From positions 350,059 through 414,058 of the forward strand of contig VBIQ01000005.1 in the NCBI GenBank assembly GCA_005880985.1: a stretch of 64,000 bases of DNA, written 5' to 3'. Positions 13,368-21,337 of the stretch are shown here, piece after piece. The notes below the pieces were generated by a model that made no database searches, was not told the origin of the DNA, and worked only from the letters and a program-made list of their open reading frames with translations. The first letter of the stretch is position 1. Each line of letters starts with the position of its first letter. The position numbers and the translations under genes were made by a program. This DNA is from Chloroflexota bacterium. GTDB lineage: Bacteria > Chloroflexota > Dormibacteria > Aeolococcales > Aeolococcaceae.

Positions 13368-14456
13368 TTGGCGCTCTCGGCGGGCATCGTCGGCCTGCCC
13401 AACGCGGGCAAGTCGACCCTGTTCAACGCCCTGACCCGCGCCGGCGCCACGGTGGGCAACTACCCCTTCACCACCATCGAGCCCAATACCGGCATCGTAC
13501 CGGTGCCCGACGACCGGCTCGAACGGCTGGCGGAGATCTTCCGTCCGCCCAGGGTGATCCCAGCGACGGTGACCTTCACCGACATCGCCGGCCTGGTGCG
13601 CGGTGCCAGCCGCGGCGAGGGACTGGGAAACCAGTTCCTCGGCCACATCCGCGAGACCGACGCCGTGGTCATGGTGGTGCGCAGCTTCTCCGACGACGAT
13701 GTCAGCCACGTCGAAGGTGCGGTCGACCCGGTTCGCGACATCGACCTGCTGGAGCTCGAGCTCGCGCTGGCCGATCTCGAGACGGTGCGCCGCCGGCTGG
13801 ACCGCACGGAGCGGACGGCGCAGCTCCGCAAGGACAAGGAGCTGCAGACGATGGCCACGCTTCGCCGGGTCCAGGAGCATCTCGACCGGGGCGCCCCGGT
13901 GCGCAGTCTGGGGCTGGGCGACGCGGAGCGCGACCTCATCCGCGACCTCTTCCTGCTCACCGCCAAGCCGCTGCTGGTGGTGGCCAACGTCGGCGAGGCC
14001 GACGCCGCTCGCGAGGTCCCAGACGCGGTTGTCGAACGCGCCGCGCGCAGCGGCGGCGAGGCGCTGGCGGTGTCGGCTCGCATCGAGTCGGAGCTGGTGG
14101 AGCTCGAGCCGGAGGATCAGCGAGCCTTCCTCGCCGAGCTCGGGGTCGAGCAGCCAGGCCTTGCCCGCCTGGCGAGGGCCGCCTATCACCTGCTCGACCT
14201 GGTCACCTTCTTCACCGCGGGGGAGAAGGAGGTGCGCGCCTGGACGCTGCCGAGCGGCGGCACCGCGCTCGACGCCGCCGGCAGCATTCACACCGATTTC
14301 GCCCGCGGCTTCATCCGGGCGGAGGTGATCGACGCCGCCGCCCTGATCGACGCCGGCTCCTACGCTGCCGCCCGGGAGCGGGGGCGCCTGCGGCTCGAGG
14401 GGCGGGACTACCCGGTTGAGGACGGCGACGTCGTCCACATCCGGTTCAACGTCTGA
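13368..14456 (+). CDS. ychF: Redox-regulated ribosome-binding ATPase YchF
   Basis: GIVGLPNAGKSTLFN, NYPFTTIEPN, DIAGLVRGASRGEGLGNQFL, IHTDFARGFIRAE, DGDVVHIRFNV. Confidence 0.96.
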   Translation: MALSAGIVGLPNAGKSTLFNALTRAGATVGNYPFTTIEPNTGIVPVPDDRLERLAEIFRPPRVIPATVTFTDIAGLVRGASRGEGLGNQFLGHIRETDAVVMVVRSFSDDDVSHVEGAVDPVRDIDLLELELALADLETVRRRLDRTERTAQLRKDKELQTMATLRRVQEHLDRGAPVRSLGLGDAERDLIRDLFLLTAKPLLVVANVGEADAAREVPDAVVERAARSGGEALAVSARIESELVELEPEDQRAFLAELGVEQPGLARLARAAYHLLDLVTFFTAGEKEVRAWTLPSGGTALDAAGSIHTDFARGFIRAEVIDAAALIDAGSYAAARERGRLRLEGRDYPVEDGDVVHIRFNV

Positions 14457-14490
14457 GCAGCGACAGAGATGGGCGAACCGCGGGGCGGCC

Positions 14491-14511
14491 GAGCCCCTTG
14501 TCACGGGGCTC
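14491..14511. terminator. Hairpin between ychF and the convergent candidate ncRNA
   Basis: GAGCCCC-ttgtcac-GGGGCTC inverted repeat. Confidence 0.55.
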
Positions 14512-14697
14512 AGGAGTCACCGGACTCATCAATGAGGTGTGCGCCCGCCTCGGGCGACGGGCGCAGGCACACGGACGCCGGGGACGGCGGCCATTGCTGG
14601 AAAGATCGGCCGGACCGGTGCAGGGAGCCGGCGTCCGCTGCCTGGCGGGACCCGACGAGCCGGAGGGGTGACCCCTCCCCCACATCTTGTGTCCCGG
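14491..14697 (-). ncRNA. Candidate structured ncRNA (6S-like rod with central bubble)
   Basis: End-to-end pairing: 14667-14675 with 14513-14521, 14654-14663 with 14520-14530, and 14628-14643 with 14565-14581. Mismatches become G-U pairs only on the minus strand. Has its own promoter and a 3' hairpin. Confidence 0.6.
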
Positions 14698-14731
14698 GCG
14701 ACATCCTACCCCCGCATGCTGTGGAGGTCAA
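14677..14731 (-). promoter_or_regulatory. Sigma70-type promoter with two NrdR-box-like 16-mers
   Basis: Minus strand TTGACC(14731-14726)-17 bp-TAGGAT(14708-14703). CCACAGCATGCGGGGG (14724-14709) and ACACAAGATGTGGGGG (14692-14677) are 32 bp apart. Confidence 0.6.
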
Positions 14732-14808
14732 TGGCCTCGGCCGAGGGCGGATGCCGTCCTTCCGCGCCTCGGGGGCTCGCCGACACGCCTGCTACCCTTG
14801 CCGCGTCC

Positions 14809-15222
14809 ATGGCCAAGAAGACCAAGCGGTCGCAGGCCCGGCGCCGTCAACAGCTCCAGCCGCGACCGGGCCCGGCCACCGGGCCGCTTTCCACGGCGAC
14901 GGTGGCGCCGGTGGCCGGTGGCGAGCCCGCCGCTCCCGTCGATCTTCCCGTCGACTCGCCATCGGCAGCGGCGCCTCCCCCGCCGTCGGCGGCGGTCAGG
15001 CGCGTCGGGCGCATCGATCCGGCGGCGCAGCGGGCTACCGCGGCGCGGCAGAGCGCGCGTCAATCGGCGGTCACCATCGCTCCGCTCGACAGCGACGACG
15101 CTGCGATTCCCTTCGATCGGGTGCCCTATGTGCCGGGGGATCTCCGGCGGGTCGCCATCATCGCGGTGCTGATGGTGGTTCTGATCATCATCGCCGACCT
15201 CGTCGTCACTCACGTCACCTGA
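14809..15222 (+). CDS. Hypothetical tail-anchored membrane protein
   Basis: MAKKTKRSQARRRQ, Pro/Ala-rich linker, YVPGDLRR followed by a single C-terminal TM helix; TACCCT -10 at 14793. Confidence 0.75.
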   Translation: MAKKTKRSQARRRQQLQPRPGPATGPLSTATVAPVAGGEPAAPVDLPVDSPSAAAPPPPSAAVRRVGRIDPAAQRATAARQSARQSAVTIAPLDSDDAAIPFDRVPYVPGDLRRVAIIAVLMVVLIIIADLVVTHVT

Positions 15223-15318
15223 CCGTCGGCGCCGCCACAACGACGAGGAATCAGGGCGCAGCGGAGTTGAGGCGGTAGACTTCAGCGGCTGCGCGGCTGC
15301 AGGGGGCAATTCACGCCG

Positions 15319-16491
15319 ATGCGAGTGATTCTCTATACCGGCAAGGGCGGGGTCGGAAAGACCTCGGTCGCCGCTGCCACGGCGGTGCGGTGTGCACGGC
15401 TTGGACACCGCACTCTGGTGCTGAGCACCGACGCCGCCCACAGTCTCGCCGACAGTCTCGACGTCGAGGTCGGCGAGCATCCCAACGAGGTCGCCGAGAA
15501 CCTCTGGGCGCAGGAGGTCAACGCGCTCCACGAGCTGGAGAGTCACTGGGAGAAGATCCACGTCTACCTGAGTGAGCTCTTCGCCTCGCAGGGTGTCGAC
15601 GACATCGTTGCCGAGGAGCTGGCCTCGCCGCCGGGGATGGAAGAGGTGGCCAGCCTGATGTGGATCAAGCACCACCGGCGCACCGAGCAGTTCGACCTGC
15701 TGGTGGTTGACTGCGCTCCCACCGGAGAGACCCTGCAGCTGCTCGCGTTCCCCGACGTGGCCCGCTGGTATCTCAACAAGATCTTCCCCATCGAGCGCCG
15801 GGTGATGAAGGTGGCTCGCCCGGTGGTGCAACCGTTTCTCAGCATCCCCCTCCCGGGCGACGAGATCTTCAGCAGTGTCAAGGAGCTCTTGCTCGACCTG
15901 GAGGGGATGAAGCAGGTCCTCGGCGATCCCAAGGTGTGCACCACGCGCCTGGTTCTCAACCTCGAGAAGATGGTGATCAAGGAGGCGCAGCGAGCCTTCA
16001 CCTATCTCAGCCTCTACGACTATCTCACCGACCTGGTGGTGGTGAACCGGGTGCTCCCGCCGGAGGCCGGAGACGGCTACTTCAGCGGCTGGCGCCAGTC
16101 ACAGGAGCGCTACTCCGAGGTGGTGGACAGCGCCTTCTCACCGATCCCCATCCGCCGCACCCGGCTGTTCGAGCACGAGGTGGTGGGGATCGAGCGGCTC
16201 GACGATATGGCACGGTCGCTCTTCGGCGACGAGGATCCGTCCACCATCTACTACCACTCCGTCCCGCAGCAGGTGCGCAGGCTCGGTACCGGCTACGAGC
16301 TGGTGCTGCAGCTGCCCTTCGTCAGCAAGGATGAGGTCGTCCTCACCCACCGCGAAGGCGAGCTCTTCGTCACCGTCGGCGCGTACAAGCGGGAGATCAG
16401 CCTGCCGCGGGTGCTCGCGGGCAGGCAGACCACCTCGGCCAAGCTCGAAGAGGGCATGCTTCGCATCGGCTTCGGGAGTGCCCGGCGCTGA
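15319..16491 (+). CDS. ArsA/Get3(TRC40)-family ATPase with C-terminal HSP20-like domain
   Basis: GKGGVGKTS deviant Walker A, STDAAHSL, PPGMEE, DCAPTGETL, C-terminal beta-rich GELFVTVG..KREISLP; single ATPase domain. Confidence 0.9.
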   Translation: MRVILYTGKGGVGKTSVAAATAVRCARLGHRTLVLSTDAAHSLADSLDVEVGEHPNEVAENLWAQEVNALHELESHWEKIHVYLSELFASQGVDDIVAEELASPPGMEEVASLMWIKHHRRTEQFDLLVVDCAPTGETLQLLAFPDVARWYLNKIFPIERRVMKVARPVVQPFLSIPLPGDEIFSSVKELLLDLEGMKQVLGDPKVCTTRLVLNLEKMVIKEAQRAFTYLSLYDYLTDLVVVNRVLPPEAGDGYFSGWRQSQERYSEVVDSAFSPIPIRRTRLFEHEVVGIERLDDMARSLFGDEDPSTIYYHSVPQQVRRLGTGYELVLQLPFVSKDEVVLTHREGELFVTVGAYKREISLPRVLAGRQTTSAKLEEGMLRIGFGSARR

Positions 16492-16727
16492 CTGACGAGC
16501 GCTGCGGCATCTGCCCGGGGCGCTTCCTCGGTGAGGCCGGACAGCTGCTGGGTCCGGCCGTCGAGGACATCATTCCCCACGAGGCGCAGGTGCACCTCTT
16601 CAATGCCCAGCGCGAGCTGCTGCTGGCGGTGAAGCTCACCATCGAGCACCACACCCGCTCGCAGCAGGCGGCGGAGCGTCGCGCCCGGCGCCAGCGGCGC
16701 CGCCCGGTCCGCGTCGAGCTGGAATGA
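16488..16727 (+). CDS. Small CxxC protein coupled to ArsA/Get3 (DUF5304-like), probable CTG start
   Basis: Absent from the ORF track. GGGAG at 16474-16478; CTGA overlaps the ATPase stop. Reads (M)TDERCGICPG...HLFNAQRELLLAVK...PVRVELE; its stop overlaps the next ATG. Confidence 0.75.
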   Translation: MTDERCGICPGRFLGEAGQLLGPAVEDIIPHEAQVHLFNAQRELLLAVKLTIEHHTRSQQAAERRARRQRRRPVRVELE

Positions 16728-17470
16728 CCGGCCCGCAGGCCTATATCACCGCGGTCGTCTACGCGCTTCCCGGCCTGATCATCGGCTTCACCCTGCACGA
16801 GCTGGCCCACGCGGCCACCGCCGTGCGGCTCGGCGATCCCACCCCGCGACGTCTCGGCCGGCTCACCCTGGATCCGCGCGAGCACGTCGACCCGGTCGGG
16901 CTGGGCCTGCTGCTGACAGTCGGCTTCGGCTGGGCCAAGCCGGTGGTCTTCAGCCCCGCCTACATCCGCACCGGGCTGCAGCAGGCGGCGGTGGCGGCGG
17001 CGGGACCGCTGACCAACCTGCTGCTCGCGGTGGTCTTCGCGGTGGCGCTGCACGCCGAGCTGGCGACCTCGTCGACCCTGCTGGATCGAGCCGTCCTCAA
17101 CATGTCACTCGGCCAGGGGGGGCCCGACGTCATCCTCTTCAACCTGCTGGTCGAGGCCTTCTTCGTCAACGTCGTGCTCTTCGTCTTCAACAGCCTTCCC
17201 GTCCCGGGCCTCGACGGCTACGCGACGGCGCGCGGGCTGCTCGGCCGGCAGCTCCCCGATGTCTTCCGCTGGATGGAGGCCAACCGGCAGCTCATCTACC
17301 TCGGTCTGATCCTGCTGATCTTCGTGCTTCCCCAGTTTCAAGGCGGCGTCAACCCCCTGTACTCCACCATCCTCCACGTCAACGACTTCCTCTATCACCA
17401 CTTCGTCGACAGCTCGTCGACGGTGGTGGGAAGCCTCCCCAACATTTTCAACCTGTTCCAGCAGCAGTGA
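16724..17470 (+). CDS. Site-2 protease family (M50) membrane metalloprotease
   Basis: HELAH, GWAKPV, AAGPLTNL, FNSLPVPGLDG. Confidence 0.92.
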   Translation: MTGPQAYITAVVYALPGLIIGFTLHELAHAATAVRLGDPTPRRLGRLTLDPREHVDPVGLGLLLTVGFGWAKPVVFSPAYIRTGLQQAAVAAAGPLTNLLLAVVFAVALHAELATSSTLLDRAVLNMSLGQGGPDVILFNLLVEAFFVNVVLFVFNSLPVPGLDGYATARGLLGRQLPDVFRWMEANRQLIYLGLILLIFVLPQFQGGVNPLYSTILHVNDFLYHHFVDSSSTVVGSLPNIFNLFQQQ

Positions 17471-18867
17471 CCGCCGCGCCGACGCCGCGCGAGCTCCCGT
17501 CGGTCGATGCGCTGGCCGCGCATCCGGGGCTGTCGCGATGGCACGAGGCCCCGGCGGTGCGCGCCCGAGCCGCCCGCTCGGTGCTGGAGGAGGAGCGGAC
17601 CGCGCGCCGGGGCGGGACCACCCGCTATCCCGACGGCGACGCGCTCGCGGCCGCGGTGGCGCTGCGACTGGGCCGCCTGCTGGATCCCGGGCCGCGCCGG
17701 GTGATCAACGCGACCGGCACCGTGGTCCACACCAACCTCGGGCGCGCACCCCTCTCCGCGGCGGCACGCGCGGCGGCGGTGCGCGCCGCCGGGTACTGCG
17801 ACCTCGAGTACGACCTCGGCCCCGGCGTGCGCGGGTCGCGACAGGACCACCTGGCACCGCTGGTGGCGGAGCTGTGCGCTGCCGAGGACGCGCTGGTCGT
17901 CACCAACAACGCCGCCGCCGTGCTGCTGACGATGACGGCGCTGTGCCGCGGCGGGGAGGTGCTGGTCTCTCGAGGCGAGGCGGTGGAGATCGGCGGCGGC
18001 TTCCGCATCCCCGATGTGATGCGGCAGTCGGGTGCGCGGATGGTCGATGTCGGCACCACCAACCGCACCCGCGCCGCCGATTACGCCACCGCGATCACCC
18101 CGCGGACCCGGGCCATCGTCCGCGTTCACGCCTCGAACTTCAGCATCCGCGGTTTCACCGAGCGGCCGACCACCGCGGAGTGCGCCACGATCGCGCGCGA
18201 GCACGGGCTGCTGCTGATCGAGGATGCCGGAAGCGGGGCGCTGCTGGACCCGCCGGCCGGGCGACCCGAGCTGGCCGGAGAACCGGTGCTGGCGTCGGTC
18301 GTCGCCGCCGGAGCCGACATCGTGCTCGCCAGTGGCGACAAGCTCTGCGGCGGGCCGCAGGCAGGTGTCGTCGCCGGCCGCGCCGACCCGATCGGCCGAA
18401 TGCGCCGCCACCCGCTGATGCGAGCGCTGCGTCCCGACAAGATGATCGTCGCGGCGCTCGGCGCCACCCTGGCCGCCTACCTGCGGAGCGACGCGGTGGA
18501 GAGCATCCCGGTTCAGCGCATGCTCAACCGCAGCGACGCCGACCTGGCCGGCGACGCCCGGGCGTGGACGGCTCGACTTCGCGACGCCGGGGTGGCGGCG
18601 GAGGCGGTTGCGGCGGCGAGCACGGTCGGCGGCGGCTCGGCGCCGGAAGCGGCGCTGCCGACCACGTGCGTGGTCCTGCCGGGGCCGACGGGGCGGCTGC
18701 TGGCCGCGCTGCGCGCCGCCGATCCTCCGGTGGTGGCCCGCGCCGAGGGCGGCCGCGTCTGGCTCGACCCGCGGACCGTGCTGACCGATGAGGCGGACAC
18801 CCTGATCGACTGCGTCCGCCAAGCCTGGGAGGCGGTGCATCCCACGCCCGTGGGCCGTCCCCGCTGA
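17467..18867 (+). CDS. selA: L-seryl-tRNA(Sec) selenium transferase
   Basis: VINATGTVVHTNLGRAPL, NNAAAVLL, VEIGGGFRIPDVM, GTTNRT, SGDKLCGGPQAG, RALRPDK. Confidence 0.95.
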   Translation: MTAAPTPRELPSVDALAAHPGLSRWHEAPAVRARAARSVLEEERTARRGGTTRYPDGDALAAAVALRLGRLLDPGPRRVINATGTVVHTNLGRAPLSAAARAAAVRAAGYCDLEYDLGPGVRGSRQDHLAPLVAELCAAEDALVVTNNAAAVLLTMTALCRGGEVLVSRGEAVEIGGGFRIPDVMRQSGARMVDVGTTNRTRAADYATAITPRTRAIVRVHASNFSIRGFTERPTTAECATIAREHGLLLIEDAGSGALLDPPAGRPELAGEPVLASVVAAGADIVLASGDKLCGGPQAGVVAGRADPIGRMRRHPLMRALRPDKMIVAALGATLAAYLRSDAVESIPVQRMLNRSDADLAGDARAWTARLRDAGVAAEAVAAASTVGGGSAPEAALPTTCVVLPGPTGRLLAALRAADPPVVARAEGGRVWLDPRTVLTDEADTLIDCVRQAWEAVHPTPVGRPR

Positions 18868-19441: not shown

Positions 19442-21337
19442 GTGCGATACGTCATCGGCACCGCGGGGCACGTCGACCATGGCAAGTCCTCGCTGGTGCT
19501 GGCGCTGACCGGGACCGATCCCGACCGCCTCGTCGAGGAGAAGCGGCGGGGCATGACCATCGAGCTGGGCTTTGCCTCCTGGACCCTGCCCGGCGGCGAG
19601 CCGGTCGGCATCATCGACGTCCCCGGTCACCGGCGCTTCGTCCGCACCATGCTGGCCGGCGCACAGGGCATCGACCTGGTGCTGCTGGTGATCGCCGCCG
19701 ACGAGGGGGTGATGCCCCAGACGCGCGAGCATCTCGCCATCTGCGAGCTGCTGGGTGCGCAGCGGGCGGTGGTGGCGCTGAGCAAGTCGGACCTCGTCGA
19801 CGGCGACATGCTGGAGCTGGCCCGGGGCGAGGTGCGCGAGGTGATCGCCGCCTCGTCGATGCGCGGCGCGCCGGTCGTCGCCTGCTCGTCGGTGACGGGC
19901 CACGGCCTGGCGGAGCTCGCCACCACCGTTGGGCGGACCCTCGCGTCGGCGACGCCCCGCGCCGATCACGGACGCCCCCGGCTGTACATCGACCGCAGCT
20001 TCTCCCTCCCCGGGTTTGGGACGATCGTGACGGGAACGCTCGAGGGCGGGGCCCTGCACCCCGGAGAGGAGGTGAGCGCGCTTCCCGGCGACCACCGGGC
20101 CCGCATCCGCGGGTTGCAGCACCACGGCCGCGCCGTCGAGCGGGCCGAGCCGGGGACGCGCACCGCGGTCAATCTGACCGGACTGTCGCATCGCGAGCTC
20201 CGCCGCGGCATGGCGCTGGTCCGGCCCGGCGTGCTCGCCGCGACCGCCCGCATCGATGTGCGGGTGCGGCTGCTCGAGGCGGCGCCGGCGGCGCTGCGCC
20301 ACCGTGGCGGGGTCGTCCTCTACCTCGGCACCGCGGAGATCGCGGCCGGGGTCTGGCTGCTCGATGGCGCGGAGCTGGACCCGGGCGCGAGTGGATACGC
20401 CCAGCTCGACCTGGCGACGCCCGTGTGCGCCGCGCCCGGCGATCGCTTCGTCCTCCGTCGCGCCGCTCCCGCCGCGACCCTGGGCGGAGGAGTGGTGCTC
20501 GACATCGCCCCCCATCGGCACCGCCGCCGCGACCGCGAGGTCGCCACTGCCCTGGAGCGGCGCGAGCGGGGAGGCCTCGAGGCGCTGGTCGCCGAGGAGC
20601 TGCGCAAGGCGCGCCTCGGCGCCGAGCCGGCGGCGCTGGTCAGCGTCTGCGGCGCCGGGCGCAAGGAGATCGAGGCCACCCTCGCGCGGCTTGGCCCGCA
20701 GGTTCGGCCGCTCGGCGCCCGCCGGATCGCGGCAGAGCGCTGGACCCAGCTGCGGGAGGCCTCGGCCTCGCTGCTCGAGGCGTTCCACGCCGCCGAGCCG
20801 CTGCGCGCCGGCATGTCGCGGGAGGAATGGCGAAGCCGGTTGCGCCTGCCGGCGGCGGTCGCCACCGATGTCGCCCACGCGCTGAGCTCCGAGGGAGCGC
20901 TCGCCGAACGCGACGCGCAGCTCGCACTCCCGGGTCGCGGTGGCGATGTCCCCGACGCGGCCCGCGCGGCGGCGAACGCGGTGCTCGCGGTACTGGAGAA
21001 GCGCGGCCTCGATCCGCCGCCCATGTCCGAGCTTCGCTCCGCCGGACTGACCCCGCCGCTGCTGCGACTGCTGATCGACGAGCGCCGCGTGGTCCGCATC
21101 GCGCCCGACGTCGTCCTCTCCGCCGGCGCCTACGCGCAGGCCCTCGGCGCGGTCGAGGCGGCGCTCGCGCAGATGGGCGAGGCGACGGTGGCCCAACTTC
21201 GCGACCGCCTCGGCGCCACGCGCCGGGTCGTCGTGCCTCTGCTGGAGAGCCTGGACAGCGCCCGGGTCACCATCCGCGATGGCGACATACGCCGGCTGCG
21301 CCGGCGGCCGTCACCGATGACGTCACCGTCGCGGTGA
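19442..21337 (+). CDS. selB: Selenocysteine-specific elongation factor
   Basis: GTAGHVDHGKSSL, EEKRRGMTIELG, DVPGH, IDRSF, RTAVN, GDRFVLR, C-terminal winged-helix region. Confidence 0.95.
   Translation: MRYVIGTAGHVDHGKSSLVLALTGTDPDRLVEEKRRGMTIELGFASWTLPGGEPVGIIDVPGHRRFVRTMLAGAQGIDLVLLVIAADEGVMPQTREHLAICELLGAQRAVVALSKSDLVDGDMLELARGEVREVIAASSMRGAPVVACSSVTGHGLAELATTVGRTLASATPRADHGRPRLYIDRSFSLPGFGTIVTGTLEGGALHPGEEVSALPGDHRARIRGLQHHGRAVERAEPGTRTAVNLTGLSHRELRRGMALVRPGVLAATARIDVRVRLLEAAPAALRHRGGVVLYLGTAEIAAGVWLLDGAELDPGASGYAQLDLATPVCAAPGDRFVLRRAAPAATLGGGVVLDIAPHRHRRRDREVATALERRERGGLEALVAEELRKARLGAEPAALVSVCGAGRKEIEATLARLGPQVRPLGARRIAAERWTQLREASASLLEAFHAAEPLRAGMSREEWRSRLRLPAAVATDVAHALSSEGALAERDAQLALPGRGGDVPDAARAAANAVLAVLEKRGLDPPPMSELRSAGLTPPLLRLLIDERRVVRIAPDVVLSAGAYAQALGAVEAALAQMGEATVAQLRDRLGATRRVVVPLLESLDSARVTIRDGDIRRLRRRPSPMTSPSR

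Follow-up and report, generated by a model that had tools for sequence, protein, structure and literature searches.

A predicted small RNA of the Dormibacteria with a conserved NrdR-type operator at its promoter

Promoter, tandem boxes and predicted RNA beside ychF

The window (the whole stretch of 64,000 nucleotides that was analysed, from a member of the Dormibacteria here called G000) carries ychF at 13368-14456 on the plus strand (TIGR00092 above cut-off) and, on the same strand, a gene for a 137-amino-acid protein with a C-terminal hydrophobic stretch (14809-15222, without an NCBIfam family), which has its own -10-like element at 14790-14798 and precedes a gene for a Get3/ArsA-family ATPase (15319-16491, plus strand; TIGR00345 above cut-off). 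The element described here sits between ychF, its convergent neighbour, and the 137-amino-acid gene, its divergent neighbour, with ychF and the ATPase gene serving as markers of synteny. A gene that we take to be lipoate-protein ligase-like follows ychF in many relatives (L008, L011, L021, L022, L321, L329), often placed between ychF and the RNA element, and the window also holds open reading frames at 17467-18867 and 19442-21337 that we take, from their translations, to resemble selA and selB.

A promoter scan of positions 13500-16500 returned a single sigma70-type site, where shuffles gave 0.1, and it lies on the minus strand between ychF and the 137-amino-acid gene: a -35 hexamer TTGACC (14731-14726), a spacer of 17 bp and a -10 hexamer TAGGAT (14708-14703). 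The TTG of the -35 is present in most homologues, and the T, A and final T of the -10 are kept in 92-93% of 59 homologues. A preliminary description of this DNA had pointed to two related 16-mers exactly 32 bp apart, one in the promoter spacer and one just after +1, the second fitting the NrdR motif and the first fitting it less well; positions and spacing were confirmed, and with the matrix described below box 2 scores 18.5 bits and box 1 only 4.65. Both are read on the minus strand, CCACAGCATGCGGGGG being box 1 (14724-14709) and ACACAAGATGTGGGGG box 2 (14692-14677), 32 bp from start to start. Box 1 occupies the -35/-10 spacer and box 2 lies just past the -10, at about +5 to +20 of a start predicted from the -10 to be near 14696, and the pair thus overlaps the predicted polymerase site. 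Each box also carries a second constraint, the 3' end of box 1 frequently serving as an extended -10 TG and box 2 being copied into, and paired within, the predicted RNA. There is no nrd gene in the window, as had been stated: contig C5 carries nrdR, and a large subunit of reductase was found only once, on contig C1.

The transcript predicted from this promoter (14696-14563, minus strand, about 130 nt, fold z -2.3) has two domains. Domain 1 (14646-14696) is a 5' hairpin into which the transcribed box 2 is folded. In 16 of 26 homologues the 3' part of this hairpin pairs with the box region better than shuffles do, compared to none of 10 nrdJ leaders; within box 2, ACAA is nearly invariant and for the most part unpaired in the RNA. 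Domain 2 (14563-14644), recognised from covariation and by the model R1 described below, is a stem of about 17 bp that encloses single strands rich in C and U and, at the apex, a short hairpin, and it gives a fold z of -2 or lower in 21 of 26 representatives, with G000 itself reaching only -1.3. Across 31 sequences 87% of the alignment cells at paired positions are paired, and there are 40 compensatory changes compared to 17.6 in shuffles, none of 500 of which was as high, a control that is inflated by kinship among the sequences. G-U pairs and model scores favour the strand of the promoter. The predicted 3' end in G000 lies anywhere between 14563 and 14491; a G+C-rich hairpin at 14491-14511, assigned to neither strand and placed by sequence and fold between the RNA and the ychF stop, is a possible 3' boundary, having no T-run and no called terminator, while in family f3 a T-run follows the stem.

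The main stem of domain 2 is conserved in sequence, with an invariant GCAG...GC, and is replaced in families f3 and f4 while the C-rich loops persist. The inner loops of 26 representatives hold 550 C, 273 G, 270 U and 155 A, with the word CUCC in 20 and CGUCC in 17 of them, and in f2 and f3 the loops contain a complete anti-Shine-Dalgarno word close to an anti-start triplet; loop sequences vary from family to family but hardly at all inside f2, f3 and f5. No open reading frame or peptide is shared on either strand by 12 representatives. The preliminary description had simply assumed a regulatory RNA, an assumption that conservation, compensatory changes and the lack of a conserved reading frame now back, and it is highly likely that a non-coding RNA is made from this promoter. 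A look-up of RNA sequencing runs gave none that contains this stretch, and the element was not covered by contigs from three metatranscriptomes of soil; neither result counts for or against its expression. Rfam gave no match at gathering score in the window (one chance match, E 9.5, fell near the locus) and none at E≤1 in five homologous loci.

NrdR and its predicted sites in the genome

In published descriptions NrdR is a repressor devoted to the genes of ribonucleotide reductase. The preliminary description made its proposal depend on the genome encoding this protein, and it does so: the G000 protein, encoded at C5:47224-47760, scores 194 bits with TIGR00244, above the cut-off, and keeps C3, C6, C31 and C34 (both CxxC motifs of the zinc ribbon) together with D15 and R17, the residues named for base recognition by NrdR (PMC9110341). 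The gene was found in all 71 genomes of the order. The single reductase found in G000 is the B12-dependent class II enzyme NrdJ, and neither NrdD nor a reductase small subunit was found in this 93%-complete genome. Hydroxyurea is reported to act on class Ia reductase and not on class II or III (PMC4409342), so it would be a poor probe here, where only a class II enzyme was found.

For scoring, 30 reductase upstream regions were collected, 10 of which matched a seed pattern, and a symmetrised matrix was trained on 15 boxes from eight reductase promoters, all from other genomes, the boxes of G000 itself, one further locus and one poor site being omitted. With this matrix 25 of the 30 regions (eight of them training regions) had their best pair at 32 bp and the other five had no positive pair. 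At the nrdJ promoter of G000 there are two CCCAAGATGT boxes with a spacing of 32 bp, and the two 16-mers beside ychF match them in sequence and in spacing. Words that we take to be DnaA-box-like occur twice in the nrdJ leader of G000 (L002) and just upstream of the -35 of the RNA in family f3 (L324-L330).

At the ychF locus, box 2 ranks fourth in the genome at 18.5 bits, with four of 3,300,322 positions, itself included, scoring as well, and box 1, at 4.65 bits, is equalled at 1,187 positions. The pair together scores 23.1 bits and ranks fifth, the ranked pairs, all at 32 bp, being nrdJ (38.6), smc (33.9), guaB3 (29.7), ftsA-ftsZ-nrdR (27.5), the present site (23.1) and a site on contig C29 (20.7). 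Pairs of at least 16 bits are concentrated at this spacing (six at 32 bp, one at 33, two at 36 and none at ten other spacings), and the best pairs in three genomes simulated with matching 4-mer composition scored 10.5-18.4 bits, so that scoring against reductase boxes, as proposed in the preliminary description, puts the pair far above background. Elsewhere NrdR tetramers loaded with dATP and ATP bind two boxes three helical turns apart (PMC9110341), spacers of 15-16 bp are the common and tightly bound form of such pairs, and NrdR of other species binds consensus pairs having this spacer (PMC12051234). From motif, spacing and position we consider it very probable that the two 16-mers are an NrdR operator.

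Of the other pairs in G000, the one upstream of smc (C2:10787-10834, L378; 33.9 bits, 32 bp) was also present in three of five relatives tested. That at C12:321056-321103 (L379; 29.7 bits) precedes a GuaB3-family gene in a cluster of purine-metabolism genes. The pair on contig C5 (C5:44531-44578, L380; 27.5 bits) lies upstream of ftsA-ftsZ-nrdR, an arrangement suggesting autoregulation of nrdR tied to ftsAZ, and in one relative (G355) a box pair directly precedes nrdR. The sixth-ranked pair (C29:40172-40219; 20.7 bits, 32 bp) is between two genes of unassigned role and may be chance or an additional target. At nrdJ loci in several relatives the open frames run to 1,200-2,170 amino acids, or the matches are split in two, which suggests inteins.

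Recurrence across the Dormibacteria

In relatives, too, the DNA adjacent to ychF has this promoter with its box pair and, further downstream, the hairpin, and a pattern scan of metagenomes gave 67 loci. The set of homologues comprised 62 sequences, three without upstream DNA, which had been picked by box 2 so that only box 1 is independent; among the 59 distinct homologues the best partner of box 2 was at 32 bp in 54, at 31 bp in three and at 28 and 35 bp in one each. The spacing, whose conservation the preliminary description had singled out for checking, is therefore 31-32 bp in 57 of 59 homologues.

The model R1 was built from 31 sequences restricted to the RNA core, which contains no box, and so removes this selection by box. 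It matches 38 of 151 genomes of the class, these being G000 (with one strong copy), 20 of 33 in family f1, all 15 in f2, one of 43 in f3, one of 48 in f4 and none of 11 in f5. A box of at least 8 bits lies within 130 bases upstream of 34 of 37 R1 loci (the remaining one of the 38 was cut upstream and not scored), with a partner at 31-32 bp in 25 of these 34, a box 1 that is the top-scoring one in seven and a better offset of 29 bp in two; the three loci without a box are weak matches resembling coding DNA. R1 also matches 69 among the 80 listed of 98 stretches from a scan of named genomes, the matches being mostly labelled Candidatus Dormibacteria, Dormibacter or Aeolococcus, with seven under other labels. 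Box 1 scored 1.4-12.2 bits at the 66 true loci of that scan that had upstream DNA and -6 to -32 bits at 11 chance loci.

Box 1 is weak in G000 and f1 (mostly 2-5 bits) and stronger in several f5 genomes. A pattern of the promoter only matches six of 11 f5 genomes, once at the promoter of nrdR itself and five times at the RNA promoter, and these five RNA loci have a box 1 of 11-13 bits together with compensatory changes in the stem. At four f5 loci (L319, L320, L322, L323) there is also a third strong box, of 16-21 bits, about 30 bp upstream of box 1. Seventeen ychF regions obtained from 28 further genomes included 11 in which a hairpin element lies downstream of a box pair (five in f5, four in f3, one each in f2 and f4); of the remaining six, three from f3 had one strong box and a weak partner and three had none. 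The f4 evidence is one genome, nine of 11 f4 genomes having given no ychF locus at the cut-off used. R1 gives the elements of f5 and f3 no more than 20-35 bits and does not recognise those of f4 and of genus g22, so that homology in these groups is argued chiefly from position, promoter, boxes and fold. R1 did not detect the element in 13 of the 33 f1 genomes, two of which were recovered by the pattern search, and the element is absent beside ychF in G009.

Taken at the level of sequence and predicted fold, promoter, box pair (31-32 bp) and two-domain hairpin recur beside ychF in all five families of Dormibacteria sampled. Beyond the class, R1 gave two weak matches in a sample of 151 genomes of the phylum, both without boxes; 27 ychF regions of other Chloroflexota held two box pairs over the threshold, neither with this layout, and viral contigs gave no match to the pattern. 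Promoter, boxes and RNA element flip together as one unit, their orientation relative to the neighbouring genes being the same in 22 of 30 loci and opposite in seven (including the G000 locus and most f3 loci), with one locus lacking a neighbour. We conclude that the promoter of this predicted small RNA, new and class-wide, bears a conserved operator of the NrdR type, and the element would give an uncultured lineage of soil bacteria an RNA family not yet catalogued.

Possible action of the RNA and comparison with known systems

In the mechanism that we propose, NrdR with dATP and ATP would cover the spacer and the start site and repress transcription of the RNA, and falling dATP would release the RNA together with nrdJ, smc, guaB3 and ftsA-ftsZ-nrdR. 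The C-rich loops of the RNA would pair with G-rich ribosome-binding sites, silencing mRNAs in trans. Together with the anti-Shine-Dalgarno words these loops suggest pairing with ribosome-binding sites, as in the 6C RNA discussed below, and we give this mode of action a little better than an even chance. The whole reading, a trans-acting small RNA repressed by NrdR and pairing at ribosome-binding sites, likewise seems to us somewhat probable. Activation by NrdR has also been reported, at topA (PMC4409342).

Searches for mRNA targets, of low power, were made in several ways. A duplex scan of one loop against 2,965 predicted G000 genes gave no standout. Pairing with the nrdJ leader reached p≤0.05 in one of seven genomes, with the wrong RNA segment used for two of the seven; pairing with the nrdR start was seen in three of 14, at differing sites, and with the smc start in none of six. 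The f2 signal at nrdR starts equals that of any anti-Shine-Dalgarno word against shuffles. Pattern scans for ribosome-binding sites complementary to the loops were at control level in f2 and returned almost only self-matches in f3. Two common f2 pattern matches were rejected as targets, as both are inside genes on the antisense strand.

Because these target searches gave nothing, the RNA may instead act on a protein while still being under NrdR control, as a decoy or scaffold, for instance a minimal mimic of the open promoter that occupies RNA polymerase, or a sponge taking up a protein that binds C-rich RNA. The stem, pyrimidine bubble and apical hairpin do recall a shortened 6S plan, and the main stem is kept in sequence beyond what pairing would need. 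However, no 6S model match was found at the locus, G000, G001 and G199 each have another candidate for 6S after aspS, and the apical arm is only about 10 bp, which is short for sigma70 contact; Ro60 was not found in G000, and it is the stem sequence that f3 and f4 replace while they keep the C-rich loops. A decoy or scaffold seems to us rather unlikely, though more probable than the readings that follow. That the palindromes are not NrdR sites at all, box 2 being kept by RNA structure and box 1 by the promoter, or both by another regulator, we regard as very unlikely. The low score of box 1 in f1, its ending in the extended -10 TG and the pairing of box 2 inside the 5' hairpin would fit such an origin, but the motif with its 32-bp spacing recurs at nrdJ, guaB3, smc and ftsA-nrdR and directly before nrdR in G355, box 1 rises to 11-13 bits in f5 where four genomes have the further strong box some 30 bp upstream, and the ACAA of box 2 hardly varies despite being mostly unpaired.

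The orientation of the element to its neighbours bears on whether it is a cis-acting leader of the operon of the small 137-amino-acid gene and Get3, with that operon under NrdR. The orientation shared with the operon in 22 of 30 loci is what a leader would give, but since it is opposite in seven, G000 and most f3 loci among them, we do not consider the RNA element to be a leader. The small gene moreover has its own -10-like element, retained in G009 where the RNA element is missing, and in the window the boxes are 66-113 bp upstream of that element; together these make a leader even less probable than a non-NrdR origin of the boxes. Least probable of all is that the unit codes for a small peptide on one strand. 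In many homologues the opposite strand does have GTG, ATG or TTG after a stretch rich in purines, and complements of start triplets are present in nearly all of 104 loops, one of them from a chance locus (CAC in 76, CAT in 15, CAA in 10, CAG in one, none in two). Against this, the 12 representatives have no common frame or peptide on either strand, indels of one and two bases are found throughout, the commonest f1 type has a stop straight after the first ATG, and no promoter is called on the opposite strand.

If the NrdR-repressed, trans-acting small RNA that we favour is real, it extends the reach of the dATP/ATP sensor to other genes post-transcriptionally. A wider picture, which we offer only tentatively, has an NrdR cell-cycle regulon (nrdJ, guaB3, smc, ftsA-ftsZ-nrdR) with the class-wide small RNA as its post-transcriptional arm, this being one of a widespread and unrecognised group of dNTP-sensing small RNAs that silence translation when DNA precursors are low, and so link replication readiness to growth and dormancy in these soil bacteria. 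Neither an NrdR-controlled small RNA nor this RNA appeared in a literature search that covered titles and the openings of abstracts, with subscription texts, supplements and regulon tables mostly outside its scope.

The closest known counterparts of the operator are those of the reductase genes (S. coelicolor nrdRJ and nrdAB, L. monocytogenes nrdAB and nrdDG), described as likewise having two 16-bp quasi-palindromes, a 16-bp spacer and overlap with the polymerase site (PMC9110341, PMC12051234). Here, in contrast, NrdR would govern a predicted non-coding RNA in place of an enzyme operon, and box 2, once transcribed, would form part of a conserved hairpin in that RNA. P. aeruginosa topA is, like the present RNA, an NrdR target outside the reductases, but is reported as a protein gene activated from a single box (PMC4409342), whereas here a tandem pair lies on the core of an RNA-gene promoter.

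For the RNA itself the nearest likeness is the 6C small RNA of Actinobacteria (RF01066), also a small hairpin RNA with C-rich single strands in a high-G+C host (PMC6486639, PMC5014011). It has been tied to DNA replication and cell division (PMC6486639, PMC5014011) and acts via its C-rich loops without chaperones (PMC6486639). Structurally, 6C consists of two tandem stem-loops with six or more C, whereas the present element is one long stem with internal loops, and identity with 6C was rejected, as a search of G000 with RF01066 gave nothing at E≤10. None of four 6C promoters tested had an NrdR-like box, and a study of C. glutamicum 6C reports binding of LexA and RamA and does not mention NrdR (PMC5014011).

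The 6S RNA (RF00013) shares with the element a long stem, a central pyrimidine bubble, an apical hairpin and a sigma70 promoter of its own, but it is a rod of about 185 nt whose bubble is flanked on either side by long arms, whereas the element core is about 80 nt. Identity with 6S was rejected, as the model matches only after aspS in G000; this candidate (C2:45487-45670, L033) scores 26 bits, below the Rfam cut-off, and has a promoter-like site upstream, and the 6S model gave two weak matches in 22 relatives, also after aspS (the syntenic copies in G001 and G199). Two other identities were also set aside, the SRP RNA of G000 being on contig C13 and no TROVE domain, as for a Y RNA, being found in this 93%-complete genome.

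In its regulatory logic the proposal most resembles Fur and RyhB, in which the small RNA is repressor-controlled and lets Fur reach other genes after transcription. There, as in the scheme proposed here, a metabolite-sensing repressor silences a small RNA and thereby acts indirectly as an activator, while the sensor and its signal would differ, being NrdR with dATP and ATP in the Dormibacteria.
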